Virus record (IMG/VR): IMGVR_UViG_3300025276_000022
Source: a virus
DNA length: 64,000 nt
Direction: 5' to 3' (one strand)
The notes under the pieces were generated by a model. It saw nothing but the letters and a program-made list of their open reading frames with translations. It ran no database searches and was not told the origin of the DNA. This document shows, piece by piece, positions 1,389 through 40,072 of the stretch (positions within the stretch are counted from its first letter, which is position 1; each line of letters begins with the position of its first letter). Position numbers and translations under genes: made by a program.

Positions 1389-2537
1389 ATGAATTATCAA
1401 CCATACAATCTCCAAGATGTCTATGACGCGGCATCTCAGAAAAAATTTAAAGTAGTGTCTACGTTCGCTGGCGGTGGTGGTTCATCCACTGGATACCGAC
1501 TGGCAGGTGCTGACATTCTCGCAGTTAACGAGTTCGTCGAAGAAGCACGGGTCACCTATAAAGAGAACTATCCGGACACTCCAATTCTTCCCGACGATAT
1601 CAAACAACTATCTGGTAAAGATTTCCTAGAGCTCACTGGTCTCAAGAAAGGTGAACTGGATATTCTTGACGGATCTCCTCCTTGCTCTGCATTTTCTGTT
1701 GCAGGCAAACTCTCTCATTCATCTGATGGTAAACACTCTGATGGTTGGGGACAGACCAAGTCCTATAGTGACGGTAAGATTGTCGAGAACATCGAAGACT
1801 TGTTCTTTGAGTTCTTACGTGTAGCTAAAGAAATCTCCCCCAAGGTAATCATCGCAGAGAATGTTAAAGGTCTGACCATTGGTGAGGCAAAAGAATACTA
1901 CAACCGCATCCTTAATGAATTCGAGAATATTGGATATGAGGTTGTCTCTGAGGTTATGGATTCTCGTTACTACGGTGTCTCTCAGACTCGTACTCGTGTA
2001 ATCTTCATTGCCGTAAGACAAGATGTTGCCGACGAGGTTGGGTTAAACTTCCTAACTATGAATCACTTGTTCCCTGCACCAAGCCGCACAGCGATCCCTC
2101 TCAAGGATGTTCTGGTTGGTCTGGAGTATGATAACGAAGAAGTCGAGTACCTAACAGAGAAGTTCGAAAGAACTGCGTACTGGAAAGATACTGGATCTCT
2201 GATGCCAACCTTTCCTGATAAAGTTTTGACTGGGGGTGACTATCATCCGAAAGGTCACCACTTCAATCTCAAGAGAGTATCGCTCGAAGTCCCTGCCCCT
2301 ACTCTTACTGCGATGGGTAGCGGAGATACTACTGCTGGTGCATTTCATTGGAGTGATCCAAGAAAGTTGACACTAGGTGAATTAAAGCGTATAATGTCAC
2401 TACCCGATGACTTTAAACTAACGGGCAAGTGGAACCAGAAGGCAGAACGTATTGGTCGTATGGTACCACCATTAATGATGAAACAGATTGCTGAGTCAGT
2501 CTATGATAACGTATTGAAGGTATATAATGAAAGATAG
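1389..2537 (+). CDS. DNA cytosine-C5 methyltransferase, probable carboxymethyltransferase
   Basis: Motifs FAGGGG (I), GSPPC (IV), ENV (VI), QTRTR (VIII); motif X reads GRMVPP instead of GN(A/S)VP. Confidence 0.9.
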   Translation: MNYQPYNLQDVYDAASQKKFKVVSTFAGGGGSSTGYRLAGADILAVNEFVEEARVTYKENYPDTPILPDDIKQLSGKDFLELTGLKKGELDILDGSPPCSAFSVAGKLSHSSDGKHSDGWGQTKSYSDGKIVENIEDLFFEFLRVAKEISPKVIIAENVKGLTIGEAKEYYNRILNEFENIGYEVVSEVMDSRYYGVSQTRTRVIFIAVRQDVADEVGLNFLTMNHLFPAPSRTAIPLKDVLVGLEYDNEEVEYLTEKFERTAYWKDTGSLMPTFPDKVLTGGDYHPKGHHFNLKRVSLEVPAPTLTAMGSGDTTAGAFHWSDPRKLTLGELKRIMSLPDDFKLTGKWNQKAERIGRMVPPLMMKQIAESVYDNVLKVYNER

Positions 2538-3246
2538 AGAAAGCACAACCCATAGAGATTTTACATTCGGTCACCGCGAAGAAGGTTTCGATAATCATAT
2601 CGATGCTTCGATTCGCCACTACTCCTCACTACACGATGACGTAGTAAACTTATCTCGTTACTTTGTAGAGAACGATACTAAGGTTGTAGACATTGGATGT
2701 AGTACAGGTAAGACCATCGAAGCCATGGTCAAACAGAATCATGAAACTGCGCCCAATGCACATTACTGTGGTGTTGAGTATGCCGAAGTGTTTCAAGCAG
2801 AGATGACTGATCGAGAAAAGAGACTTAATGGTGAAGGTCATCATATCTGTTTTCAAAACAAGAACATCATCCACCACAACTTTTCAAACTGTTCTCTTGT
2901 AACTTCTATCTTCACGTTGCAGTTCATGCAACCGCTATGGAGAAAGAAGGTAATGCAAAACATCTATGATGGTCTTAACGAAGGCGGTGCGTTCATCTTT
3001 GCCGAGAAGACTTATTCAGAGAACTCACGTATCCAAGATATGATAACCTCTACGTTCTATGAGTACAAAGCAGAGCACTTCACCTATGAAGATATTATGG
3101 AGAAAGAGAAGACTCTCCGAACTATGTTGAAACCAATGACTTGGAACGAGCTTGTCGCTCTACTAACCTCAGTTGGTTTTGATTCGACAAAGATTCAACC
3201 GTTCTGGATGAATCATTTGTTCGTCGGTGCTATTGCAATAAAGTAA
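2527..3246 (+). CDS. cmoA: CmoA-like carboxy-S-adenosylmethionine synthase
   Basis: DFTF..F..HI..SI..Y, VVDIGCSTG, FTLQF, IYDGLNEGGAFIFAEK align with bacterial CmoA. Confidence 0.85.
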   Translation: MKDRESTTHRDFTFGHREEGFDNHIDASIRHYSSLHDDVVNLSRYFVENDTKVVDIGCSTGKTIEAMVKQNHETAPNAHYCGVEYAEVFQAEMTDREKRLNGEGHHICFQNKNIIHHNFSNCSLVTSIFTLQFMQPLWRKKVMQNIYDGLNEGGAFIFAEKTYSENSRIQDMITSTFYEYKAEHFTYEDIMEKEKTLRTMLKPMTWNELVALLTSVGFDSTKIQPFWMNHLFVGAIAIK

Positions 3247-3265
3247 ATTATTTAGCTATAAGCCC

Positions 3266-3294
3266 TTGACTTTTGTTTCGAAAAGAGGTATAAT
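3266..3294 (+). promoter_or_regulatory. Early promoter of the TTGACTTTTGTTT cassette family
   Basis: TTGACT-17-TATAAT; near-identical to 45817-45845 and shares the GAGTTGAGAGAGA leader. Confidence 0.85.
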
Positions 3295-3332
3295 AGGTAC
3301 TTAGTTAATCGAGTTGAGAGAGAAAATATATT

Positions 3333-4820
3333 ATGATTGCGACGAACTCTACCCACATACATAAAATTGTTTGCGAAGAACTTGTGTCTAAATCTCATGA
3401 GGCGTACACCTACAAGTGGACTATCAAAGACCCTGATAGCAATAAAACCTATTTTTATGGTGGTCGCAGACATAACGAGTATCAGCCTAATGCGTATATG
3501 CATTCAAGTAAGAATGCTAAATTTCTTGACATTCTTAGTAAGAGTAAGGATGTAACATATGAGGTCACTTCTGTAGGTACTCATGAAGAGGCAGCGCTCG
3601 AAGAGGCTCGAATGTTAACAGACTCTAAAGCTAAGAGTTCAGAATATTGGTTTAACTCTACCAATGGTTTAGGTGGTAAAGGTGGTAAAGGTGTTGGTAA
3701 AACATTATTTTTAGACACTCTCACTAGTGAGATGAAACGTCTTATGAACGGTGAAGAAAACCTTAAACCAGACCAAGTCGGGCCTATGGGTATCACCAAG
3801 GGCAACTACTCAAAAGCAGATTTAAGAGATATTGTTGTTATCCGACAACAATTCGTACAAACGCGTTCATACCAATTTAATTCCTCTCACGTATCTACTT
3901 TGGCGGAAGGGTTTGATAAGAAATCTGACCCAAATGAATGGGAACCTATTGTCGTTCTTCTGGATGCTAAGGTAATAGATAACAAAGTAGTATATTGTGA
4001 CAAAGGTGGCGTAGTTGTTATTTCAGGTAATCACCGTTCGCGTGGTTTAGTACGTTCTACTAATGGAGTATCTTTGAATGCCTATAACATTCCCCATAAG
4101 TCTTGGGAAAAATTAGACGACATAGACATGAGAACGTTATCTAATAGATTTAACCCAAACCCTGAAAAACCTGTACTCAAGCAAGACCCTGAAGCGGCCG
4201 CAGCATGGGTCTTGGGTTGGTGTGAAAATAGAGGTCTAACAAAGATTGCTGATGATGGAGTTACAAAGATACCTGATATTAAACACTCCCTCGTTAAAAA
4301 GGAACTTATCGAAGTTAATAACTACACTCAGGGCGATTTCAATAGTGTTATAAAAGAGTGCCAGAAAAAAATCGAGAAACAATTTATAGCTGATGGAGAT
4401 AATATGCTAGATTGGGCAGACGCGGCTATGTCTCTAGACCCTGTCTTAGCTGGTACCCTTGACCATTATAAAACGAGGTTAATAGACGAAGGGCAACATA
4501 CCGATGTTTATAAGATTTCAGGTAAGGTTCTTAACTGGGGTAAACTCTCAGATAGGATTTATGATAAAAAACAATGCGAGATTAAGACCCATCATAACTT
4601 ATTGGTATTAGTGTACCATGCGACTAAGGAAGATATGAAGGAGTGTAAAAAGGGTCTATATAAAAAATGTAAAGTATTCTCAGATGATTTTATTGCGGGT
4701 AAACCAGACCGTAAAATTGAGTATATGCATCTGCCTATCACCAAGTCATACCTTCAATATAAAAGCCCGTTGAAGCTTGACTATGATATTGTTTGCGATA
4801 AACTAGTAGAAGGTTTGTAA
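3333..4820 (+). CDS. Seg-like GIY-YIG domain fused to a ParB/Srx-like domain
   Basis: N-terminal YTY..FYGG..YMHSS..E..WFNSTN pattern; central PIVVL..ISGNHR ParB-like motif. Confidence 0.6.
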   Translation: MIATNSTHIHKIVCEELVSKSHEAYTYKWTIKDPDSNKTYFYGGRRHNEYQPNAYMHSSKNAKFLDILSKSKDVTYEVTSVGTHEEAALEEARMLTDSKAKSSEYWFNSTNGLGGKGGKGVGKTLFLDTLTSEMKRLMNGEENLKPDQVGPMGITKGNYSKADLRDIVVIRQQFVQTRSYQFNSSHVSTLAEGFDKKSDPNEWEPIVVLLDAKVIDNKVVYCDKGGVVVISGNHRSRGLVRSTNGVSLNAYNIPHKSWEKLDDIDMRTLSNRFNPNPEKPVLKQDPEAAAAWVLGWCENRGLTKIADDGVTKIPDIKHSLVKKELIEVNNYTQGDFNSVIKECQKKIEKQFIADGDNMLDWADAAMSLDPVLAGTLDHYKTRLIDEGQHTDVYKISGKVLNWGKLSDRIYDKKQCEIKTHHNLLVLVYHATKEDMKECKKGLYKKCKVFSDDFIAGKPDRKIEYMHLPITKSYLQYKSPLKLDYDIVCDKLVEGL

Positions 4821-16768: not shown

Positions 16769-17086
16769 ATGAGCGATAATGTAATTTTAGTAGGTATCAT
16801 TTTAGTCATAGTAGGATTTATTGTTATGAGTAAAAAATCTAGCACTGGGTCAACTGGTAAAGGTACTACCCCAGTAAAGCCATCAACGCCTGTGGTAGAT
16901 CGCCATGCTGAAAGCATTGCTGTACAAAGAGACATGTTTTCTAAAATGACTGTTACTCAATTAAAAGTATATGTTAAAGAAAACAAATCTAAATTGGGAG
17001 AATCGACGGGTCGTATGCCAACTAAGAAGGCCGAACTCATTGAAGCTGCTATGCAAATATTCCAATCTTGGACTGAAGAAAAATGA
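16769..17086 (+). CDS. Membrane-anchored protein with Rho-N/HeH-like C-terminus
   Basis: N-terminal TM helix; KMTVTQLK..KKAELI. Confidence 0.55.
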   Translation: MSDNVILVGIILVIVGFIVMSKKSSTGSTGKGTTPVKPSTPVVDRHAESIAVQRDMFSKMTVTQLKVYVKENKSKLGESTGRMPTKKAELIEAAMQIFQSWTEEK

Positions 17087-17760
17087 AAACCTTTAAAACC
17101 TTCTTGAACGAAGGAGTCAATGATCCAGCAATCTTCAAAGCAGTCTTTCTTGCAGGCGGGCCTGGATCAGGTAAGTCTTTCATAGTCGGTAAGACTGGAC
17201 TAACCTCTATGGGTTATAGAGTAAGTAATTCTGACGATGCGTTCGAAGCAGGCCTAAAGAAAGCAGGACTAGAAATGAGTCCTGAGAATATCTTTTCTGT
17301 TAAAGGTCAAGAACTTCGAGGTAAGGCTACTGCAATAACTAAAACTAGACAGACTATGTATATCAAAGGTCGGTTAGGATTAGTCATCGACGGTACTGGT
17401 AAGAATCTTGAAAAGATGAAGACCCAAGCAAAAGACCTTAAAAAGATTGGATATGATGTTGCGATGATATTTGTCAACACTGACCTAGAAACTGCTATGG
17501 CTAGAAATCGCGCAAGAGCGAGAAAACTACCTGATGATATGGTCAAAGAATATTGGCAAGAGATCCAAAACAATATAGGTGCGTTTCAAAGTTTGTTCGG
17601 TAAGAAGAACTTTCTAGTTGTCGATAACTCAGATGGTAAAGACTGGACTTCCGAAACTCTTCGTGCATACAAAGACGTAACAAGATTCACTGAGGCACCT
17701 GTGGAGAATGCCAAATCTAAGAAGTGGATTGCCGCAGAAAAGAAAAAGAAAACTCGCTAA
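17083..17760 (+). CDS. Zeta-toxin/AAA_33-like P-loop kinase with capsid-targeting-like N-terminus
   Basis: MKTFKTFLNE; GGPGSGKS; VIDGTG; RNRARAR lid. Confidence 0.8.
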   Translation: MKTFKTFLNEGVNDPAIFKAVFLAGGPGSGKSFIVGKTGLTSMGYRVSNSDDAFEAGLKKAGLEMSPENIFSVKGQELRGKATAITKTRQTMYIKGRLGLVIDGTGKNLEKMKTQAKDLKKIGYDVAMIFVNTDLETAMARNRARARKLPDDMVKEYWQEIQNNIGAFQSLFGKKNFLVVDNSDGKDWTSETLRAYKDVTRFTEAPVENAKSKKWIAAEKKKKTR

Positions 17761-25258: not shown

Positions 25259-26413
25259 ATGGCAGCTTTATCTTACAAAGAAATTACCAAGGAGAACAAG
25301 GAGTATCGTTCTGAGCTTCTTGTCGAAAAGGTTTTTTCTAGAAACGGAAAGTCTAATAATTTTGTTATTGAAGGAGAAGGTGTTCTGGTCGCAGAATATA
25401 TTAAGATAAACGACAAGAAGATCTCTTCTGGAGATACCCATGATATAGTAGGTATGATATTTGCTCTGAAACTTTTACCCGTTTCCCAAAGAAAGATTTT
25501 AGTATGCGGTAAATTTCAAGGACAGTCTGCGAATAAATCGTTTCTTATATCTAAATTAGAGAAGACCGAAGAATTTGGTGGTCAACCTGCCGGCGGTACC
25601 AGAGTAAACAAAGGTATCCAATTCGAACACGACTTCGTTGATGTTCTAAACGAACAACTTTCGGGTACTATGAGTAGTAAGACGTATTCGAAAGAAGTCG
25701 ACTACATTCTCAAAGCTTGTGCTAAAAAGGAAAGATCTCCGGTAGTAAAGATATTGGCGGAAGGTGGACAGAACCAAAGTCGTCCTATCGCAGTACAGGG
25801 CGGTAAGTTATATATTGCCCCTAATGACCATAAAGCACATGGCGAGAAGTTGACTGATATTACTCTAGTTCACGCCAACAACAAAAAATCATATCTATCT
25901 TTGAAGTTCTCAAGTACTCTCACTTTCATGAATGCTGGTGTTGGAATGATCTTCACTCAGAGAGACATGTTAAATAATGAAGTCACTACTCCAATCGGTA
26001 AGCAGATAATAGAGACGTTTGGGTTGGACGAAACTATGTTTTGTGAGGTGTTCACGCAGTATGGAAAACAAAAGTTTCCTTCTGTAAAAACCTCTATGAA
26101 CAATACCAAGTTAAAGAATTTCCTTCAAACATGTATCGGCTCTGGTTATTGGATGGTTCATGGTATGGAAGGTGGAAAGGTTTACTTCTGGGAAATGTCT
26201 TCTGCGAAAAATCCGCAGTATTCTACTATCACGGGTGATGTTGAGATTCAATACGGTGGTTCTTCAGGTAAAGGTAAACGTATTGATATCGTGTTCAGCA
26301 ATCAATATTTTGACTTTAAGATAAACATTAGAAATAAACAGGGGGGTTTGTATCCTTCACACATAATGTGTGACTATAAGAGCAAACCAGCAACAGGAAA
26401 AGTGTTACTATGA
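25259..26413 (+). CDS. Hypothetical protein, PD-(D/E)XK restriction endonuclease-like
   Basis: GIQFE..LTDITL..YLSLK; TATAAATA at 25198. Confidence 0.5.
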   Translation: MAALSYKEITKENKEYRSELLVEKVFSRNGKSNNFVIEGEGVLVAEYIKINDKKISSGDTHDIVGMIFALKLLPVSQRKILVCGKFQGQSANKSFLISKLEKTEEFGGQPAGGTRVNKGIQFEHDFVDVLNEQLSGTMSSKTYSKEVDYILKACAKKERSPVVKILAEGGQNQSRPIAVQGGKLYIAPNDHKAHGEKLTDITLVHANNKKSYLSLKFSSTLTFMNAGVGMIFTQRDMLNNEVTTPIGKQIIETFGLDETMFCEVFTQYGKQKFPSVKTSMNNTKLKNFLQTCIGSGYWMVHGMEGGKVYFWEMSSAKNPQYSTITGDVEIQYGGSSGKGKRIDIVFSNQYFDFKINIRNKQGGLYPSHIMCDYKSKPATGKVLL

Positions 26414-27630
26414 ATACGTTTCAGCAGTTCATCACAGAGAACAAAAATACACACATGACTCATATTGAGGACAAGGTTCTCTATGGTGGTGTTGATGGTA
26501 CGCGTCAGGCTATTAATGCTCTGCGTGGTCTACGAGATCTACTTGCTGGACATGGTGCCGGTAAGGTCTCTGTCAAGTGGGACGGTGCTCCTGCTGTATT
26601 CTGTGGAACAGATCCAAGTGACGATAAGTTCTTTGTTGCTAAGAAAGGTATCTTCAATAAGAATCCAATGGTATACAAGACTAATGCTGACATCGATGCT
26701 GATACATCTGGTGACCTAAATGCGAAGTTAAAGGAAGCATTACTATATCTTCCGGAGTTAGGAATCGTGGGTGTTATTCAGGGAGACTTCCTTTTCGGTA
26801 AAGGTGATGTATCTACCAAGGTTATCGAAGGACAGAAGTATACTGCATTCCACCCAAACACTATTGCATATGCAGTACCATATGATCAAGCAAAATCTGT
26901 ACGAGATGCTAAGATCGGTATCGTGTGGCACACTACGTATAAAGGTGCTACTTTCGAATCTATGACAGCGTCATACGGAGTAGATGTTTCTAAACTAACG
27001 AAGTCTAAGAACGTATGGTCTCAAGACGCGATGTTGCGAGATGCTACTAAAGCGACAATGTCAGACAAGGACACCGTTGAAGTTAATGCACGTTTGACTG
27101 AGATCGGTCGTCTATTCAAGCAGACCTCTGCAAAAACTCTAAAGACCTTAGAGGCCTCTCCGAAGTTAGCACAGGCGATAGAAACCTACAACAATTCGTT
27201 CGTTCGTGCCGGTGCATTGTTGCCTGACTCAAAAAGACATGTTAGCGGATTGATAAGTAATAGACAAGCTTACTATAAAAAGGAGATAGACAGTAAGAAG
27301 TCTGAACGTGGTAAGGAGACGTGGAGACAGAAATATGCAGACGAAATGGAGTTTTTCTCTGCAAAAAACCGTGCTAACCTAGTTAAAATGTTCGAATTAC
27401 AGAAATTGATAGTTTTGGTCAAATTAAAACTTATAAATAGTTTAGACAAACTAAAGACAATTGATACTTTCGTTAAAACTTCTAAAGGTTACAAAGTAAC
27501 TGGTGAAGAAGGTTATGTAGCAATTGACACACTTGGTGGTGATGCGGTGAAACTTGTTGATCGTATGGAATTCTCATACAACAACTTTTCATCCGATATA
27601 TTAAAGGGCTGGGATTCAGCTCGTAAATAA
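26410..27630 (+). CDS. ATP-dependent ligase-like nucleotidyltransferase with capsid-targeting-like N-terminus
   Basis: MNTFQQFITE; KWDG (I), QGDFLF (III), EGYV (IV), VKLVDR (V). Confidence 0.65.
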   Translation: MNTFQQFITENKNTHMTHIEDKVLYGGVDGTRQAINALRGLRDLLAGHGAGKVSVKWDGAPAVFCGTDPSDDKFFVAKKGIFNKNPMVYKTNADIDADTSGDLNAKLKEALLYLPELGIVGVIQGDFLFGKGDVSTKVIEGQKYTAFHPNTIAYAVPYDQAKSVRDAKIGIVWHTTYKGATFESMTASYGVDVSKLTKSKNVWSQDAMLRDATKATMSDKDTVEVNARLTEIGRLFKQTSAKTLKTLEASPKLAQAIETYNNSFVRAGALLPDSKRHVSGLISNRQAYYKKEIDSKKSERGKETWRQKYADEMEFFSAKNRANLVKMFELQKLIVLVKLKLINSLDKLKTIDTFVKTSKGYKVTGEEGYVAIDTLGGDAVKLVDRMEFSYNNFSSDILKGWDSARK

Positions 27631-27654: not shown

Positions 27655-28029
27655 ATGACTATGATGTCATTTAAAGATATGGTAAATGAAGTACTCGACG
27701 TAGCACAACGTCGAAAACTTGCACAGCGAATGAAAAGAAATAAATCCAGAATTGCAATCGCACGTAAACGTAGCGAAAAGAAAATTGCTAACATGGATAC
27801 CCTCAAGAAACGTGCACGTCGTCAAGCACGTAATGCAATGGTCGCTAAGATCACTAAGGGTAAAGGTAAAGCGGATATGTCTATCGCTCGTAAGAAAGAC
27901 ATAGAAAAAAGGATGGAACGTCCTGCCGTACAATCACGTATAGATCGCCAGGCTAAGAAACTTGTAAAGGTTGTTCGTAAGCAAGAAATCGAACGCAAAA
28001 GAAATAGGTCTAAAGGCGATAACAAGTGA
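27655..28029 (+). CDS. Highly basic protein
   Basis: MMSFKDMVNE start; very Lys/Arg-rich. Confidence 0.7.
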   Translation: MTMMSFKDMVNEVLDVAQRRKLAQRMKRNKSRIAIARKRSEKKIANMDTLKKRARRQARNAMVAKITKGKGKADMSIARKKDIEKRMERPAVQSRIDRQAKKLVKVVRKQEIERKRNRSKGDNK

Positions 28030-29705
28030 TTAAGAATTTTAGTCAATACCTTGTCGAAGAAGAACGAGAAGTTTACTTTACGTTTGGTCGTATGAATCCT
28101 CCTACGATTGGCCATGGCAAGGTGATGGATGCGTTAGCAATAAAGTCTGGGAAATCAGACTATAAGGTATTTGTGTCACAGTCACAAGACGCGAAGAAGA
28201 ATCCTTTAGCATACGCAGATAAAATCAAGCACACAAGAAAAATGTTTCCGAAACACGCACGGAATATCATGGTGGATAAGTCTGTTAAAACAGCTATCAA
28301 CGCCATGGTCGTACTATATGACCAAGGTTACAAATCCGTAACACTGGTTGTTGGAGACGACAGAATTACAGAATTCGATGTACTATTAAATAAGTATAAT
28401 GGTACTAAAGCAAGACATGGTTTTTATAATTTTAAAAATATCAAGATAGTATCTGCCGGTAAGAGAGATCCAGATTCTACTGGTGTCGAAGGCATGTCTG
28501 CTTCCAAACAAAGAGAGAACGCGTCTAGTGATGATTTCGTTTCTTTCTCGCAAGGTGTTCCTAAGTCAATGTCAGATCCAGACACACGTAAGTTATTTAA
28601 CGACGTGCGTAAGGGTATGGGGCTAAAAGAAGCAAATGGATTCCGTAATCACCTAGAACTAGAAACAGTATCCGAAACACGAGAGAAATTCGTGCAAGGA
28701 GAATTGTTCGAGGTAGGCGATATAGTAGTAATCAAAGAAAGTGAAGAGGTTGCTACTATATCCGTCCTAGGTGCAAACTACGTCATCGTTGAAACTAGCG
28801 ATGGTAAGAAGATGCGTAAATGGTTAGAGTCTGTGGAGTTGATCTCCGAAGACGTTGACCAGAAGCAACTTAATGATTTAGAGAAGTTCGGTGACCGTCT
28901 ATTGAAGAAGTTCAATATCGACATCGAGTTTACTCGACACTTCGCAGACCGTATGAACGATACACGTAATAGTCCTGCTATTAAGGTAACGGAACTTCAA
29001 CGTCTGTTTAAGAAGATTGCAAAGAATAAGGGCAAAGGCATAAAAAAGCATGGGGATGCTGAGGCAGTATTGAAAGATATGCAGTCAGACCTAAATTTAC
29101 CTGTCGTTGTAAACTATAAGGACGGTGAGTTCGAAATGGTTAACAAGACTATTATGCGTAAGAAGAACTTCAAAACTACTAGTCCGGTCGTGCAATACGA
29201 AGGACAGGATCCAGATATCAAGGATCGTGAAGGGACTCAACCATCACGTTATCACAAAGGTCTAGAGAAATCTACCAAGGTAAAACGTGACGCACACTTC
29301 AAAGCAAAGAAAGATGGCCCAGCGCCAGGCGATGCAACTGCCAAGACCAAACCTTCCAAGTACACCAAGTCATTCAAGGACATGTACGACGAAGATTGTT
29401 GGGACGGTTACAAGCAAGTCGGTATGAAAAAGAAAGGTGGTAAGACAGTCCCTAATTGTGTTGCAGAAGATAATAGTCAAGGTATTAACGAAGGGTTCAT
29501 GGACACAGTAAAGTCTAAGACCATCAATAAAAAAGAATATCAACATGCTTTGTCTACTTTAAAGAAGCTTCTGACTCGTAAGAGTGATGAGAATAAAGGT
29601 AAACTAACTCATAGTACAGAGTATTATGCACAGAAGGTTGCCAAATCATATTCGGGTATGAGCACTAAAACACTGCATAGTATGTTAGGGAAATGGAAAC
29701 CATGA
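28026..29705 (+). CDS. Cytidyltransferase-like (HxGH) multidomain protein
   Basis: FGRMNPPTIGH, VVGDDR, MSASK, followed by several small modules. Confidence 0.8.
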   Translation: MIKNFSQYLVEEEREVYFTFGRMNPPTIGHGKVMDALAIKSGKSDYKVFVSQSQDAKKNPLAYADKIKHTRKMFPKHARNIMVDKSVKTAINAMVVLYDQGYKSVTLVVGDDRITEFDVLLNKYNGTKARHGFYNFKNIKIVSAGKRDPDSTGVEGMSASKQRENASSDDFVSFSQGVPKSMSDPDTRKLFNDVRKGMGLKEANGFRNHLELETVSETREKFVQGELFEVGDIVVIKESEEVATISVLGANYVIVETSDGKKMRKWLESVELISEDVDQKQLNDLEKFGDRLLKKFNIDIEFTRHFADRMNDTRNSPAIKVTELQRLFKKIAKNKGKGIKKHGDAEAVLKDMQSDLNLPVVVNYKDGEFEMVNKTIMRKKNFKTTSPVVQYEGQDPDIKDREGTQPSRYHKGLEKSTKVKRDAHFKAKKDGPAPGDATAKTKPSKYTKSFKDMYDEDCWDGYKQVGMKKKGGKTVPNCVAEDNSQGINEGFMDTVKSKTINKKEYQHALSTLKKLLTRKSDENKGKLTHSTEYYAQKVAKSYSGMSTKTLHSMLGKWKP

Positions 29706-29974
29706 TTAATTTTAAGAAATACCTTGACGAAAAGAGATATGCCATGTATGATACAGTTGACTTGGACGAAAGTCCGGACGGTATCTCTGCAAAGGCAAAG
29801 AAGTCAGGTATCTCTACAGAGACACTAAATACTGTGTATCGACGTGGAGTTGCAGCATGGAAGACGGGTCACCGTCCCGGCACAACACCACAGCAATGGG
29901 GAATGGCGAGAGTCAATGCCTTTATAGTAAAGAAAAAGAAAGGTGGTCTCAACCACGACAAGGATTTAGCATAA
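29702..29974 (+). CDS. Conserved viral protein (DUF5824-like)
   Basis: MINFKKYLDE; VYRRGVAAWKTGHRPG..QQWGMARVN. Confidence 0.65.
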   Translation: MINFKKYLDEKRYAMYDTVDLDESPDGISAKAKKSGISTETLNTVYRRGVAAWKTGHRPGTTPQQWGMARVNAFIVKKKKGGLNHDKDLA

Positions 29975-33455: not shown

Positions 33456-33473
33456 AAATAAATAGGATACCTT

Positions 33474-33656
33474 ATGAGCAAAACTAAGAAACCTCGTAAC
33501 AAAAAGATGTCACAAGCCAAGAAGGAAAAGTTACAGTCTACTAGTTTTGAAAACAACCAATTTAGCACAATGGGGTCGCAAGGCCCCAAACTAAAGGCAA
33601 CCAATATTAATACAACCGCAACGAAAATGATTCGGGGCGCATCAAGAGGAAGTTAA
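33474..33656 (+). CDS. Small basic protein
   Basis: AGGA ribosome-binding site; Lys-rich. Confidence 0.6.
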   Translation: MSKTKKPRNKKMSQAKKEKLQSTSFENNQFSTMGSQGPKLKATNINTTATKMIRGASRGS

Positions 33657-33658
33657 AG

Positions 33659-35719
33659 GTGAAGAAATTTAGTGAGATAAGAACTCATACTCAAGAGGCA
33701 AAAGAACATACGTACACTGTGGTTCATGCTAAGAAAGGTAAAGTAGTAGTTACTGCACCCACTTCATATGATGCGGCAAAGAAAGCGGCAAAGCAATGGA
33801 AACTAAAGTCTACTGGCGGTGTTGATGCTCACATTATGGAAGCAAAACAAGCTATAGTGTGGAAAGTTAAACCACCAAAGGGTCAGAAGAATATTCATCC
33901 TGATTCCAAATGGCCAGGAATAAAGCCAGGCGATATCCAAAAGATGAATGAGTCTGTCGAACTTGACGAACTTTGCGAAGCGCAAGGCAAGTTAAATGCC
34001 AAAGGCGAGATCGAGATGACTGCGAAGAACTACGCCAAGATTCACAAGGACTTTAAGACCAAGATCAAAGGAACACCTTTTGCTATGCAGATACATCCTA
34101 AGACTGGCGGTTCTGCACTGTTCCCTGTTACGTTCATCAAAGAGTCTACCGACCTCACGGAAGGTAAGAACCTCATTCCTCAGTTCCAAGATATCGTCAA
34201 GAACAAACAAGCGAAAAAGATCGGTGGTACTATGATAGATATGTACACCGCAAGCACCATTACCCATGTATATGATAAAGTATCTGATGCCAATAAGAAG
34301 AAGATGGAAACATCAAACATTAATGTGCTTATCGGACTTTCACGTAAAATCATGGGTGCTGGCCAAAAGGAATCAGTAGAGGTTGTAGAGGGAGACGAAT
34401 ATAAGAATATCTCCAAGACAATAACCCAAACTCCTAAGCATAAACGAGACAAGAAAGCAACCGCTGCAAAACCTGCCAAGACTAATGCTAGAGAAGTTGC
34501 TCGTCGTAAAGCGATTGAGAAACATCAAGCAAAGAACGCTGCTAAGAAAGAAAAAGGATACTGGGACGAGAGTGCCAAAGGTATGGTAGGCGGTTTCTCA
34601 GTAGAGATACCAAAACAAACTATCTCTGGTAAGACTATCGGTGGTGGTAAGAACGGAATCTTTGTTAAAGCTAAGACTGCTCGTCAAGCAATCAGCATGG
34701 CAGCAAAACGTCTGGGTGTTGATTTCAAGATGCTTAAAGTCGGTAAGGTATTGAAAGAAGGTGTTGAATCAATAAATGAAGCAAAAGTAGAAACAGAAAG
34801 ACACTTTGGTAAAAAAGGTATTATCATTATGATTCGTGATGGAAACAAAATGATATCTGCAATATTCAAAGATAAAAAGAACGCTGATGAATTTAATAGA
34901 AACAAACCAGCTGATGTTAAAAAACTTATACAACTTGCTAAGGAAACAAAATATCCAAAAGCAATTGATGAATCGGTAAACCTTGAAGAAGGAAAAATGA
35001 AAGAGTTTCATGACTATATTGATCAAGGTAAATCTGCACAGTGGATTGCTAAGAAGATGGGTCTGGACATGAAGACTGTAAAAGAATTGATGGCAGACAT
35101 GAAAGAGTCTGTCGAAGAAGGTAAGACTGGTGCAGCACGATTGACCAACCGACTAAAGAAGTCCGGTGTTGATCTTGACAAACGTGCCAAGGATCGTGCC
35201 GCAAGTCATGCAGAACTAAAGAAGAAGTATGCTACTGAGTCTGTCGAACTGGACGAAGCATATCAGCAGTTCTTGGATAAGACTCCTAACTGGGGTGAAG
35301 ACAAGGCAATCTCTTATGGACGCAAGAAGGGTTACAAAGAGATCGGTGTATGTGGTCACGGTAAGATAGATGGTATTGTATTGTTCGGTATGGATGCTGG
35401 CGACAAAGCATATGTCGGTAAGGAAGCAAAGATTAAGACTGGTCAAACAGTATTCCGTTATGCTACTAGCCGCACTGTCGCAGGCGATATCTTTCCTTTA
35501 GTTAAGATTGATGTTAAGAAAGGTCTTCTATATAACCTATCTCAGAAGTCTAGTGAAGGTGAGATCGAACACGCAGAGTTTGAAACTAAGAGTTCTAAGC
35601 TAAGATATCTTCGTCTTCTATCTACTGCGAACCTCCGTGATATTGTTGGATTCGATGCAGAGGTTAAAGAATCTACTGCACCTAAAACTCTTAGCGATAT
35701 TAGAGCGAAAAGATTTTAA
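33659..35719 (+). CDS. Modular putative internal head polyprotein
   Basis: MKKFSEI start; basic modules separated by ES(V/T)xxxE linkers. Confidence 0.7.
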   Translation: MKKFSEIRTHTQEAKEHTYTVVHAKKGKVVVTAPTSYDAAKKAAKQWKLKSTGGVDAHIMEAKQAIVWKVKPPKGQKNIHPDSKWPGIKPGDIQKMNESVELDELCEAQGKLNAKGEIEMTAKNYAKIHKDFKTKIKGTPFAMQIHPKTGGSALFPVTFIKESTDLTEGKNLIPQFQDIVKNKQAKKIGGTMIDMYTASTITHVYDKVSDANKKKMETSNINVLIGLSRKIMGAGQKESVEVVEGDEYKNISKTITQTPKHKRDKKATAAKPAKTNAREVARRKAIEKHQAKNAAKKEKGYWDESAKGMVGGFSVEIPKQTISGKTIGGGKNGIFVKAKTARQAISMAAKRLGVDFKMLKVGKVLKEGVESINEAKVETERHFGKKGIIIMIRDGNKMISAIFKDKKNADEFNRNKPADVKKLIQLAKETKYPKAIDESVNLEEGKMKEFHDYIDQGKSAQWIAKKMGLDMKTVKELMADMKESVEEGKTGAARLTNRLKKSGVDLDKRAKDRAASHAELKKKYATESVELDEAYQQFLDKTPNWGEDKAISYGRKKGYKEIGVCGHGKIDGIVLFGMDAGDKAYVGKEAKIKTGQTVFRYATSRTVAGDIFPLVKIDVKKGLLYNLSQKSSEGEIEHAEFETKSSKLRYLRLLSTANLRDIVGFDAEVKESTAPKTLSDIRAKRF

Positions 35720-36396
35720 TGAAAAGTTTTCGTTCATTTATAACAGACAGTGTTGATGCCGAGAAAGAATATGGTAAGTCATTTGTCGCGTCTGCCAAGT
35801 CAGTTGGTGTGCAACGTAAGTTGACCAAAGAACTTGGTGTTAAACTCAAAGAGGTAGAGAAGTCTTTGGGACACGGTGGTGGTGGTAATGGACTTACACC
35901 GGATGATGTGAAGTCGAACCCTAAGTGGAAAGCGGCAAAGAAAGCATTGGATGTTGCATTCAAGAAAGAACAGCAAATGAACCAAGCGATGTCAAAGGCG
36001 TTTGGTAAGCAGATGAAAGACTTCCGTAACAAAGACCGTAGAGGTTATATGTCTTTGTTTATCGGAGAGTCTACAGAAGCTTGTTGTGAAGACTGCGTAG
36101 AAGAACTCATCATTGAAGACGGTGTATTCATCAACGAAGATGGTAAGAAAGATAACGTGAAACTTAACAATCCTACCCGTGGTGGTAGTAAGAAGTTTTA
36201 CGTATATGTAAAGAATGAGAAGGGTAACGTGGTTAAGGTTTCTTTCGGAGATCCCAATATGGAGATCAAAAGAGATGATCCAGCACGTCGTAAAAGTTTC
36301 AGGGCGAGGCACAACTGTGCAGATCCTGGCCCGAAGTGGAAAGCACGGTACTGGTCATGTTATCAATGGCGAGCCGGTGCAAAAGTAGATAATTGA
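35719..36396 (+). CDS. Putative internal head protein with conserved C-terminal domain (DUF6321-like)
   Basis: MKSFRSFITD; KKFYVYV..VSFGD..RRKSFRARHNC..ARYWSC. Confidence 0.7.
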   Translation: MKSFRSFITDSVDAEKEYGKSFVASAKSVGVQRKLTKELGVKLKEVEKSLGHGGGGNGLTPDDVKSNPKWKAAKKALDVAFKKEQQMNQAMSKAFGKQMKDFRNKDRRGYMSLFIGESTEACCEDCVEELIIEDGVFINEDGKKDNVKLNNPTRGGSKKFYVYVKNEKGNVVKVSFGDPNMEIKRDDPARRKSFRARHNCADPGPKWKARYWSCYQWRAGAKVDN

Positions 36397-36401
36397 TACG
36401 T

Positions 36402-36409
36402 TATAAATA
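36402..36409 (+). promoter_or_regulatory. Late promoter
   Basis: TATAAATA. Confidence 0.7.
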
Positions 36410-36531
36410 CACTTAACCTTAACTAATAAGTCAACTAATTACATTAATAAACATTTTATTATACATTAATATAAACTTTATTACTAATTTATTTAAGACT
36501 TATATCATTTAGACTAATGGGCTGATCGAAA

Positions 36532-36843
36532 ATGGCAGATAATAACACCGCATTAATAGACCATGTGCAACGTGAGGAATCTCGACTCGCAAGAATTGAG
36601 GACAAGATAGATAAACTTTCAGACGCAATGATCGATCTCGCTCGTGCTGAAGAAAAACTTATAAACATAGAAAAATCAAGCTCCCAACATTTTGAACGTA
36701 TGAATCGTTTCTCCATGAGAATGGATGATATGGAAGATACCGTTCAGGAACAGGGAAAGACAGTAAAGGTCATGCAGTATATCATTACGTTATCTGCAAC
36801 CGTCTTTGCTGGTTTGGTCGTCAAAGTATTCTTTGACGCTTAA
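36532..36843 (+). CDS. Coiled-coil protein with C-terminal TM helix
   Basis: RLARIEDKIDKL heptads; hydrophobic C-terminus. Confidence 0.7.
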   Translation: MADNNTALIDHVQREESRLARIEDKIDKLSDAMIDLARAEEKLINIEKSSSQHFERMNRFSMRMDDMEDTVQEQGKTVKVMQYIITLSATVFAGLVVKVFFDA

Positions 36844-36862: not shown

Positions 36863-37726
36863 GTGATGTCAAACATCAATAATATAATGGAGGCTTATTT
36901 GTCAATGAAGGTCTCCGAGCAAGAAGCACTTGCCGAAGCTAAAAAGTTGGATGCAGTAGACGATAAGGCGAACGATAAGAAGTTCACTGATCGTAAAGAT
37001 AAAGATATAGATAACGACGGTGACGTAGATTCATCTGATGAGTTCTTACATAAGAAGCGTAAGGCAATCGACAACGAGATTGACGGTGGAGAGAAACCTG
37101 CTGACAATGCTAAACCTAAGAAGGGTGTTAATCCTTTCAAGAAGGAAGAAGTTGAGATTGACGAAGCACGTCAAATGAAAGATCCTAAGAAAGACACTAT
37201 GGTCACTAAGGGTGGTAAGACTATCGTAATCGACAAGTCTAAGGAAGCAGAATACCTCAAGAAGGGTTGGACACTATCTGAAGAAAAAGACGAAGAAGAA
37301 GATGATGTCGAGACTGATAAGAAACCTTTCCCACCTAAGAAGAAGAAGCCTGCAGATGTAGATGGTGATGTTGAAGAACCAGAAGCTGACGGAGATTCCG
37401 AAATTAAAAAGAATCCCAAGACTGCGGATAAGAAAGCTGAGATCTCTAAGATCGAGAGTGTAGACACTCGTTCTGCGTTTGAAAAAATGTGGTCAGAGAT
37501 TGTTGAAGCAACTGCGCCTAAGAAAGATGGCGAGAAGTACGATGATAACTCATCCCAGCACGATAAGGACGTTATCAAAAATCATAAGAAGTCTGATAAG
37601 AAGATTGAAGATGGTGTAGAAGATAGTCACGCCAAGACCTTTAAAGCTGGTGGTAAGGATCAAAAACAAGCCCCTGCTCGAAGCGGTGCTGACAATCTGA
37701 AAAATGGTGACAAATCACCTAAGTAA
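36863..37726 (+). CDS. Charged low-complexity protein (prohead core/internal protein-like)
   Basis: DKDIDNDGDVDSSDEFLH motif; EEVEIDE linker. Confidence 0.65.
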   Translation: MMSNINNIMEAYLSMKVSEQEALAEAKKLDAVDDKANDKKFTDRKDKDIDNDGDVDSSDEFLHKKRKAIDNEIDGGEKPADNAKPKKGVNPFKKEEVEIDEARQMKDPKKDTMVTKGGKTIVIDKSKEAEYLKKGWTLSEEKDEEEDDVETDKKPFPPKKKKPADVDGDVEEPEADGDSEIKKNPKTADKKAEISKIESVDTRSAFEKMWSEIVEATAPKKDGEKYDDNSSQHDKDVIKNHKKSDKKIEDGVEDSHAKTFKAGGKDQKQAPARSGADNLKNGDKSPK

Positions 37727-39303: not shown

Positions 39304-39884
39304 AGTCAGCCGCAGACATAGTCTACACAATTAGATTTTTAAAACTACTCGTTACTAAGTTCGAGGACACAGGTGCGTTCAAAGCAGGCATCATTGATAA
39401 GGACGGTAAAAAGAACCCAGACTTCTCTATGGATAAGATGGATGACCGTGAGGCATATCGTGATCATTATACCTCCTTCCATCGTCTTGTTTATAACCTA
39501 AAGAAAATTATGGCAAAGGCTCCTGGCGGTTCTTCGGTAGTCGCTCGGTATGGTGCTGCGCTTGCATTGATTAAAGAACATGGTGAACTATCTAACTCTA
39601 ATCTACAAAAGATACATGAGAAGACTGGTATTGATATCTTGGACATTCTAATGGAAAGTTCTCAGTGGTATGTCCTAGAGAATGGATGCGTTGGACAAGG
39701 TGTCTATCGTATGCGTAATAACTCTATGATTGATACTGGAGAAGAATTAGTCCGGAAGGGAGATCAAGTACGTATCTCCGAAGATAATCTATGTCATAAC
39801 ATCCTAGGTATACCCGTATACGAAGGAACCCACTTACGAACAGGTAAACGTATTCTGTTCTCCGCTAACGAGATAATGAAATGA
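39291..39884 (+). CDS. Conserved T4-like hypothetical protein
   Basis: YTIRFLKLL..AFKAGIID..YT.FHRLV.NLKK. Confidence 0.75.
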   Translation: MGILKSAADIVYTIRFLKLLVTKFEDTGAFKAGIIDKDGKKNPDFSMDKMDDREAYRDHYTSFHRLVYNLKKIMAKAPGGSSVVARYGAALALIKEHGELSNSNLQKIHEKTGIDILDILMESSQWYVLENGCVGQGVYRMRNNSMIDTGEELVRKGDQVRISEDNLCHNILGIPVYEGTHLRTGKRILFSANEIMK

Positions 39885-40072
39885 AAACATATAAAGAATT
39901 CATGCAATCATTCGAAGAAGAGATTGCTAACAATACTTCAGGCGTTTCTGGTGCTGGTGAAAACCCAGACCAAACCGTAGTTATACGCAAGAAGCACGAT
40001 CGCAAAAATTCGCGTAAGAATGCAGCTGCACTACTCAGAAGAGTTTTTCCAGAAAGATTTGAAAATAAGTAG
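39881..40072 (+). CDS. Small protein with capsid-targeting-like N-terminus
   Basis: MKTYKEFMQSFEE. Confidence 0.65.
   Translation: MKTYKEFMQSFEEEIANNTSGVSGAGENPDQTVVIRKKHDRKNSRKNAAALLRRVFPERFENK

Follow-up and report, generated by a model that had tools for sequence, protein, structure and literature searches.

What use could a phage have for a single long protein made of unrelated small basic domains that are joined, over and over, by short acidic peptides of a common type? The question is raised by an open reading frame (ORF) at positions 33659..35719, on the plus strand, of a 64,000-nucleotide stretch of viral DNA (IMG/VR record IMGVR_UViG_3300025276_000022), the whole of which we call the window. 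Its product, referred to here as the polyprotein, is 686 amino acids (aa) long, has a pI of 9.7 and 16% Lys, and begins at a GTG codon. The 64-kb window is part of a contig of ~141 kb, with the head genes lying outside the window, and its gene content identifies the source as an uncultured marine T4-like myovirus: the DNA polymerase is of the T4 type, with 73% identity to that of Phage C48C1 (Kyanoviridae) and ~46% to cyanomyovirus polymerases, and a gp41-type helicase, a ribonucleotide reductase and eight tRNAs are also encoded. Weighing the sequence evidence set out below, we give a probability of roughly 60% to the reading that the polyprotein is head cargo, which would be loaded through its leader, be cleaved by the prohead protease at its linkers and stay with the DNA.

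The chain consists of a 13-residue leader, ten modules (A to J, about 36–139 aa), seven acidic linkers of the ES type (pI ~4.1) and a 15-residue tail, with further E|S or E|A joints after modules A, E and J. The modules are all basic, with pI values of 8.2–10.6, 12–24% Lys and far more Lys than Arg. All of these features lie on the plus strand. The leader, (M/V)KKFSEIRTHTQE (33659..33697, aa 1–13), resembles a capsid-targeting sequence (CTS) and is followed by module A (33698-33841), which is joined to module B (33842-33949) at AHIME|A (~33827-33844). Linker 1, ESVELDE (33950..33970), forms a putative double site MNE|SVELDE|L ahead of module C (33971..34141), and linker 2, ESTDLTE (34142..34162, in the context IKE|STDLTE|G), leads into module D (34163..34369). 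Linker 3, ESVEVVE (34370..34390), precedes module E (34391..34567), which is very basic (24% Lys) and has YWD as its last residues, followed by the E|S joint at 34568-34573; this WDE|S joint (~34562-34573) connects E to module F (34568..34756). Linker 4, EGVESINE (34757..34780), module G (34781..34969) and linker 5, ESVNLEE (34970..34990), come next, and then the helix-turn-helix (HTH)-like module H (34991..35104). Linker 6, ESVEE (35105..35119), begins with the 12-nucleotide (nt) repeat GAGTCTGTCGAA, so that module I (35120..35236) stands between exact direct repeats of GAGTCTGTCGAA, the second of them in linker 7, ESVELDE (35237..35257). The last and most widespread module, J (35258..35671), is an alpha/beta domain of 138 aa, and the joint KE|ST (~35666-35677) separates it from the C-terminal tail STAPKTLSDIRAKRF (35672..35716), which follows a VKE|S site. 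A first-pass annotation, made from the letters alone, had described about ten Lys-rich modules and listed most of these linkers; every linker that it named is present in the ORF where it had placed it and the module count stands, the AHIME|A joint between A and B being the one that it had overlooked.

That annotation had also supposed that the linkers let modules shuffle like cassettes, and had named collinearity of the homologues over their full length beforehand as the refutation. Relatives were collected by a search of 5.8 billion proteins, which yielded at least 566 of similar length and 277 shorter ones, all metagenomic. When the ten query modules were mapped on the best 120 homologues, 89 different orders were found, among them F-J-C-H-A, E-H-A-J, J-I-H-D and A-H-C-J-F; module C recurs in many of the orders, for example in the first and the last of these four, while module D is often C-terminal. 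Internal homology ends, counted at ≥60% identity, fall within three residues of a module joint in 85% of 308 cases, vs 23% expected, with 25 breakpoints at aa 61 (the A/B joint) and 19 at aa 304 (the end of module E). Cutting 234 family members at their linkers gave 133 segment clusters, 46 of which have at least three members. Full-length collinearity is thus clearly not seen, and the cassette idea therefore holds.

The exchange can be followed at the level of DNA. In the nearest relative (L001), the DNA is 96–98% identical to the window on both flanks of the gene and over most of the gene itself, and the A+B block and module G are swapped for unrelated sequence exactly at the leader and linkers: identity breaks or resumes at the leader and at linker 1, stops at linker 4 and resumes, at 98%, at linker 5. 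At linker 1, 24 nt are identical in L001 beside a different upstream cassette, and the flanks of the replaced A+B block are 96–97% identical. Three further relatives (L004, L005 and L006) are without module I, and there a single copy of GAGTCTGTCGAA connects H to J in frame. The DNA comparison with relatives places the crossovers inside the repeats. Module G has 29% G+C vs 37–48% in the other modules and is, judged from its sequence, a recently imported cassette, because of this composition and because unrelated sequence occupies the same place in the nearest relative; the separate origin that had been proposed for the AT-rich segment at 34781-34969 is thereby upheld. Taken together, the comparisons of proteins and DNA establish modular shuffling at joints that resemble protease sites. 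As the comparison with relatives shows, the 21-nt coding sequence of the linker doubles as an in-frame recombination joint: recombination between linker copies deletes, inserts or replaces whole modules while leaving the frame intact, and therefore module sets and orders differ between related phages.

Is the linker then a peptide that is recognised, or a joint in the DNA? The pattern ES[VT][EDN][LIVM]xE or ES[VT]EE has six matches in the six frames of the 64-kb window, all in the polyprotein ORF, and zero in phage T4. A logo of 315 unique ES contexts reads [MILV]-K-E-S-V-E/D-L-D/E-E-A/G, which amounts to two nested hydrophobic-x-Glu sites plus one S-x-E site; the P3 residue ahead of the ES motif is M, I, V or L in 51%. 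The linkers thus fit, as had been proposed, the hydrophobic-x-Glu rule of gp21-type proteases, to which T4 gp21 and its relatives in giant phages belong, and form a conserved motif that is not due to chance. The ESVELDE joint also connects entirely different modules in other contigs, for example with six copies in L132, and that it is kept at unrelated junctions speaks for a peptide that is recognised. The frame concerned in L132 (IMGVR_UViG_3300025676_000004, 1476-3944) is open over 823 aa, starts like a leader (MKTFNKIKE) and has six joints of the ESVELDE type, and its modules are unrelated to the window's; this 135-kb contig also encodes a Peptidase_S77.

At the DNA level, the conservation of the linkers that the first-pass annotation had remarked on is confirmed: the repeat GAGTCTGTCGAA is exact at 33950, 35105 and 35237, and the 22-mer at 33949 matches that at 35236 with 95% identity. 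Among 22 linkers, a phylogenetically non-independent sample, Leu is encoded by CTT in 75% of cases vs 31% in the rest of the same ORFs (p = 1e-4) and Asp by GAC in 88% vs 38% (p = 5e-5), and synonymous variation is seen at Val (GTC/GTT/GTA, 39/39/22%) and at the first Glu (GAG/GAA, 70/30%). This pattern fits selection on the peptide combined with common ancestry or exchange of the DNA. The exact repeats of 12–22 nt at the joints, the Leu and Asp codon bias and the crossovers that map within the repeats also speak for an explanation in which the linkers are recombination joints or scars of the DNA and nothing else, their likeness to protease sites being coincidental and any processing being the work of another protease. 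We consider this very improbable, since variation at several synonymous positions leaves the amino acids as they are, which points to selection on the peptide. Moreover, ESTDLTE, ESVEVVE, EGVESINE, ESVNLEE and EEVEIDE have little DNA in common and still keep Glu and the hydrophobic P3, and the residue ahead of the motif is constrained too, as the 51% of M, I, V or L at P3 indicate.

How would such a chain reach the head? In T4, the capsid-targeting sequence is MKTYQEFIAE (PMC8442874), of which residues 4 and 7 serve targeting and residues 8 and 10 processing, and the protease gp21 carries LIE-9 at the equivalent place (PMC9026906). The leader logo of the polyprotein family is M-K-T-F-K/S-E-L/I-R-E|S; 98 of the 234 family members start in this way whichever module comes next, and different first modules (A, F, J, E, C) follow the leader in different homologues. 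Residue 9 is in most cases the Glu of the first hydrophobic-x-E site. The leader of the query carries F4 and I7, and E13 is the first acidic site in it; the GTG start is backed by a GAGGA ribosome-binding site and by homologues with an ATG start, which begin MKKFSEIR. The gp21 protease of four relatives, C48C1 included, begins MKLISEYVE, close to the leader. Module F also occurs as a single-module gene with its own leader, encoding 74 aa (P0303, in 11 contigs). At the other end of the chain, the tail STAPKTLSDIRAKRF stands after differing last modules in 31/234 family members, and the family has two further types of tail; the one seen here might be the remnant of a former leader, or serve as an additional targeting signal.

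The protease that the reading calls for belongs to the lineage: a Peptidase_S77 was found in 4/4 long related contigs (134–151 kb) that bear such polyproteins, and the one long related contig that was read has the T4 gene order 17-18-19-20-21-22-23. The propeptides of the relatives' major capsid proteins end GFLAE|S or GFLTE|T. A strict T4-type N-terminal pattern matches IPII, IPIII and gp61.1 only in all of T4, and 5–6 ORFs in the window vs 0.6 expected. The T4 internal proteins (IPs) are highly basic (PMC8442874) and contact DNA by Lys only (PMC3012670), and in SPN3US the proteins gp53 and gp54 begin with a double site ...ARE|SVE| (PMC5694885).

Based on these likenesses, we propose that the leader would act like the T4 capsid-targeting sequence and draw the whole chain into the prohead core. 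A gp21-type prohead protease would then cut after Glu in the hydrophobic-x-Glu sites, as the fit of the motif suggests; in T4, processing is blocked when position 10, where the CTS ends, is an Asp. Each joint [MILV]-K-E|S-V-E-L-D-E|A/G would give two or three cut sites, and cutting would free a six-residue acidic peptide and ten basic proteins of ~4–15 kDa, with the leader and the C-terminal tail trimmed off. The basic pieces would remain with the packaged DNA and, like T4 IPI-III, probably pass with it into the cell.

Several observations weigh against head cargo. The leader of the query has Thr rather than a hydrophobic residue at P3 of E13, and 26/234 relatives have another conserved N-terminus, MFKKPEDI..., with the C-terminus ...LKTIKEYSE; proteins of this class occupy the syntenic place in L066 and L067. 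The single targeting signal invoked by the first-pass annotation is plausible as far as the conserved CTS-like leader goes, but these 26 members make it not the whole story. Relatives of module G are mostly N-terminal in other, leaderless proteins, some with DUF3008. The protease gene was seen in relatives only, and the window lies without head genes. The hydrophobic-x-E motif is loose and is found inside modules too, and the N-terminal pattern by itself is no proof, since T4 gp61.1 has a CTS-like start too but is not known to be packaged. Upstream of the polyprotein ORF, no late promoter kept across relatives was found; AATAAATA at 33457 is missing from them. Finally, the full-length AlphaFold2 (AF2) model has a mean predicted local distance difference test score (pLDDT) of 39.9, too poor to reveal exposed linkers; its dips at linkers 4–6 lend, at this mean pLDDT, weak support to the reading.

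Could the protein do its work uncut, as a multi-domain DNA-binding or regulatory protein whose acidic segments are mere spacers between basic domains? Its gene neighbourhood is made up of replication and nucleotide-metabolism genes, some sources label relatives 'predicted transcriptional regulator', and module H is HTH-like. The HTH guess for this module in the first-pass annotation has found weak sequence support: module H has a match in the HTH unit of PDB 8vd6 (whole-chain E of 4.5e-10, ~0.01 per repeat), the only match of the polyprotein to PDB sequences, and gives weak GerE and HTH_40 matches, with a sub-threshold LPD5 match in relatives (25.8 bits, cut-off 27). We nevertheless find an uncut protein quite unlikely. 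Spacers need no near-invariant seven-residue sequence common to unrelated junctions and to distant contigs, and at both ends the motif conforms to the protease rule; the modules also occur singly, as genes with a leader, and a free order of modules is unusual for a cooperative multi-domain protein. As to location, the T4 IP genes are likewise far from the head cluster (65–66 kb vs 103 kb).

What, then, would the released pieces do? Searches of the whole polyprotein and of each module against Pfam and PHROGs gave no match above threshold, anti-defence and effector families included, and no peptidase domain. At 50% identity, module J falls into 170 clusters, many of which are stand-alone proteins 120–160 aa long, and its alpha/beta fold is confidently predicted (AF2 pLDDT 89.6). 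In the PDB it has no profile sequence match and no Foldseek match, the best VIA-align Z being 4.1; in BFVD it resembles, in structure, uncharacterised proteins from three T4-like phages, nt-1, KP15 and RB43. The module J profile has no sequence match in RB43, KP15, nt-1 or C48C1, and the BFVD look-alikes were thus not located. Relatives join polyprotein modules with an HNH domain and with a phrog_23027 module, and carry HTH-, HNH- and nuclease-like modules.

We take the pieces to be at least Lys-rich DNA-associated cargo, as far as their composition can tell. The chain might be loaded and cut, and its pieces have no role after injection, serving as counter-ions or packing for the DNA, or as core filler that is degraded and expelled. 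This is consistent with modules that are all small, basic and Lys-rich, with zero matches to effector families, with T4 IP lysines that touch DNA phosphates (PMC3012670) and with T4 core proteins that are cut at many sites and then cleared (PMC5694885). We judge it unlikely, since it leaves unexplained the cassette replacement between genomes 96–98% identical, the dozens of module families (133 segment clusters), and the folded conserved domains such as J together with the HTH-, HNH- and nuclease-like modules of relatives; pieces of 4–15 kDa would also exceed the typical expelled scaffold peptides. The rapid turnover of cassettes suggests that some modules act on the host. That they deliver an anti-defence function, as the first-pass annotation had it, is a reasonable guess by analogy with T4 IPI* and from the fast turnover.

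The surroundings of the gene were also examined. Across 50,697 phage records, among them T4, neither tblastn nor megablast found a match to the polyprotein or its 10-kb region. HTVC008M has the neighbouring enzymes and leaders that are only weak; an ES-linker polyprotein was not found in it. In the complete genome of C48C1 (OQ984149.1 66424-68091; L085 13425-15092) a gene for a single module (67 aa) carries the leader of the polyprotein, MKKFTEIRE|A, and the same locus encodes a 373-aa protein with the joints ESTDLEE, KESVQE|S and NESVELEE. Immediately upstream of the polyprotein lies a very basic ORF of 60 aa (33474-33656, MSKTKKPRNKK...RGASRGS), which stops 2 nt before the polyprotein start and is conserved in C48C1 and several metagenomic loci; it is therefore a real gene. 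The late-promoter-like sequence TATAAATA is enriched in the window (12 vs 4.4 expected). A near-match to it upstream of the polyprotein gene was rejected as a late promoter because relatives do not keep it. Within an AT-rich intergenic region (36402-36483, 25% G+C), ahead of a gene at 36532, a perfect TATAAATA stands before two 22-nt repeats in tandem (TACATTAATAAACATTTTATTA).

The next gene (35719..36396, plus strand), whose ATG overlaps the polyprotein stop codon by one base, encodes 225 aa with a leader-like start MKSFRSFITD... and two modules joined at GESTE (36064-36078). The end of the polyprotein tail, ...PKTLSDIRAKRF (35675-35716), is similar to the leader (KKFSEIR) and adjoins the leader-like start of this gene (35719-35760). 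In L001 there is a stop codon at the GESTE joint, and the C-terminal domain (36079-36396, ...YWSCYQWRAGAKVDN) is a separate gene in L066 (3412-3774), L067 and C48C1 (L085 15092-15409). This domain is called 'HVA1 family' in some records, has its own CTS-like leader in C48C1, and occurs also in pelagiphage podoviruses, roseophages and archaeal spindle-shaped viruses. A third gene of the same kind (36863..37726, plus strand, 287 aa) has the joint EEVEIDE|A (37145-37165), and the module after this joint directly follows a leader in P0081.

The CTS pattern recurs at the start of other ORFs in the window, namely a P-loop kinase (17083-17760, MKTFKTFLNE), a ligase-like protein (26410-27630, MNTFQQFITE), the ORF at 27655-28029 ((M)MSFKDMVNE), a cytidylyltransferase polyprotein (28026-29705, IKNFSQYLVE) and the ORF at 29693-29974 (MINFKKYLDE). 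Such ORFs are found at about ten times the chance expectation, and so enzymes may also be head cargo. The 63-aa ORF at 39881-40072, which starts MKTYKEFMQSFEE, was dropped from the candidates, as it is a homologue of T4 gp61.1, a conserved small protein with the CTS-like start MKTFKEFIKED... that is not known to be packaged.

If head cargo is the right reading, a single leader could load ten or more small proteins at fixed 1:1 ratios, and one short motif would account for both the release of proteins and their rapid exchange between phages. Abundant ocean phages would then hold dozens of module families that are candidates for a role in the first seconds of infection, and proteins with such a role are hard to detect by homology. 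With leader and joint as building parts, foreign proteins could likewise be packaged in T4-type heads, as is already done with the T4 CTS. A bolder view, which we hold to be possible though short of even odds, is that the seven-residue ESVELDE-type joint of marine T4-like phages is a standard plug for capsid cargo, a prohead-protease site and an in-frame recombination site in one, so that any small protein flanked by it can be added to a leader-tagged chain, loaded, cut out and injected; phages would in this way rapidly re-assort a host-takeover or anti-defence arsenal in an integron-like cassette array.

To our knowledge, loading of the capsid by polyproteins is not known in tailed phages, and in the literature we found no description of the motif, or of a polyprotein connected with the prohead protease or internal proteins. 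The nearest relations are partial ones. The multiply processed head and ejection proteins of the giant phages phiKZ, 201phi2-1 and SPN3US (PMC5694885, PMC9026906) share a cleavage motif after Glu, a gp21-related protease and clustered sites, but their extra sites lie within long propeptides of one mature protein, and here they lie between shuffled modules. PeSL cassettes (Arbiol et al. 2010, PMC2839356) likewise use short repeats as crossover points for exchanging modules between near-identical T4-type phages; they are intergenic, with an early promoter and a stem-loop terminator, and move whole genes, whereas the repeat described here is a coding one of 12–24 nt that works in frame.

Polyvalent proteins (Iyer et al. 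2017, PMC5512222) have two to fifteen unrelated domains, and the proposal is that they are packaged, reach the cell along with the DNA and in some cases undergo processing. The polyprotein, with its ten modules, resembles them in having many unrelated domains per polypeptide in variable combinations. Their domains are large and enzymatic, include built-in peptidases and are joined by no standard linker, in contrast to modules of mostly 40–70 aa here, and the sub-threshold LPD5 match in relatives is the sole domain link to the polyvalent repertoire (LPD domains, methyltransferases, ADP-ribosyltransferases, peptidases and nucleases). The polyprotein contains no peptidase domain, and a uniform motif would be the place where the prohead protease processes it.

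The closest parallel is offered by the internal proteins of T4. Mullaney and Black reportedly described, in 1996, the capsid-targeting sequence of IPI, IPII, IPIII and Alt and the processing of these proteins by gp21. Targeting and processing are the subject of reviews (PMC3012670, PMC9026906). The two systems have in common an N-terminal tag of ~10 residues with aromatic or hydrophobic residues at positions 4 and 7 and a hydrophobic-x-Glu end, a small, highly basic and Lys-rich cargo that is diverse behind the conserved tag, genes outside the head cluster and a gp21-type protease in the lineage. No homology of IPI, IPII, IPIII or Alt to the polyprotein was found in the tblastn search of the phage records or among PDB sequences. 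The T4 cargo is one protein per gene with a single cut, whereas here up to ten or more modules follow one leader, a standard internal joint doubles as in-frame recombination site, and a conserved C-terminal tail stands after the last site. By analogy, the polyprotein would work like the T4 internal-protein system, with its leader, gp21 and basic cargo, in a non-homologous and polyprotein form.

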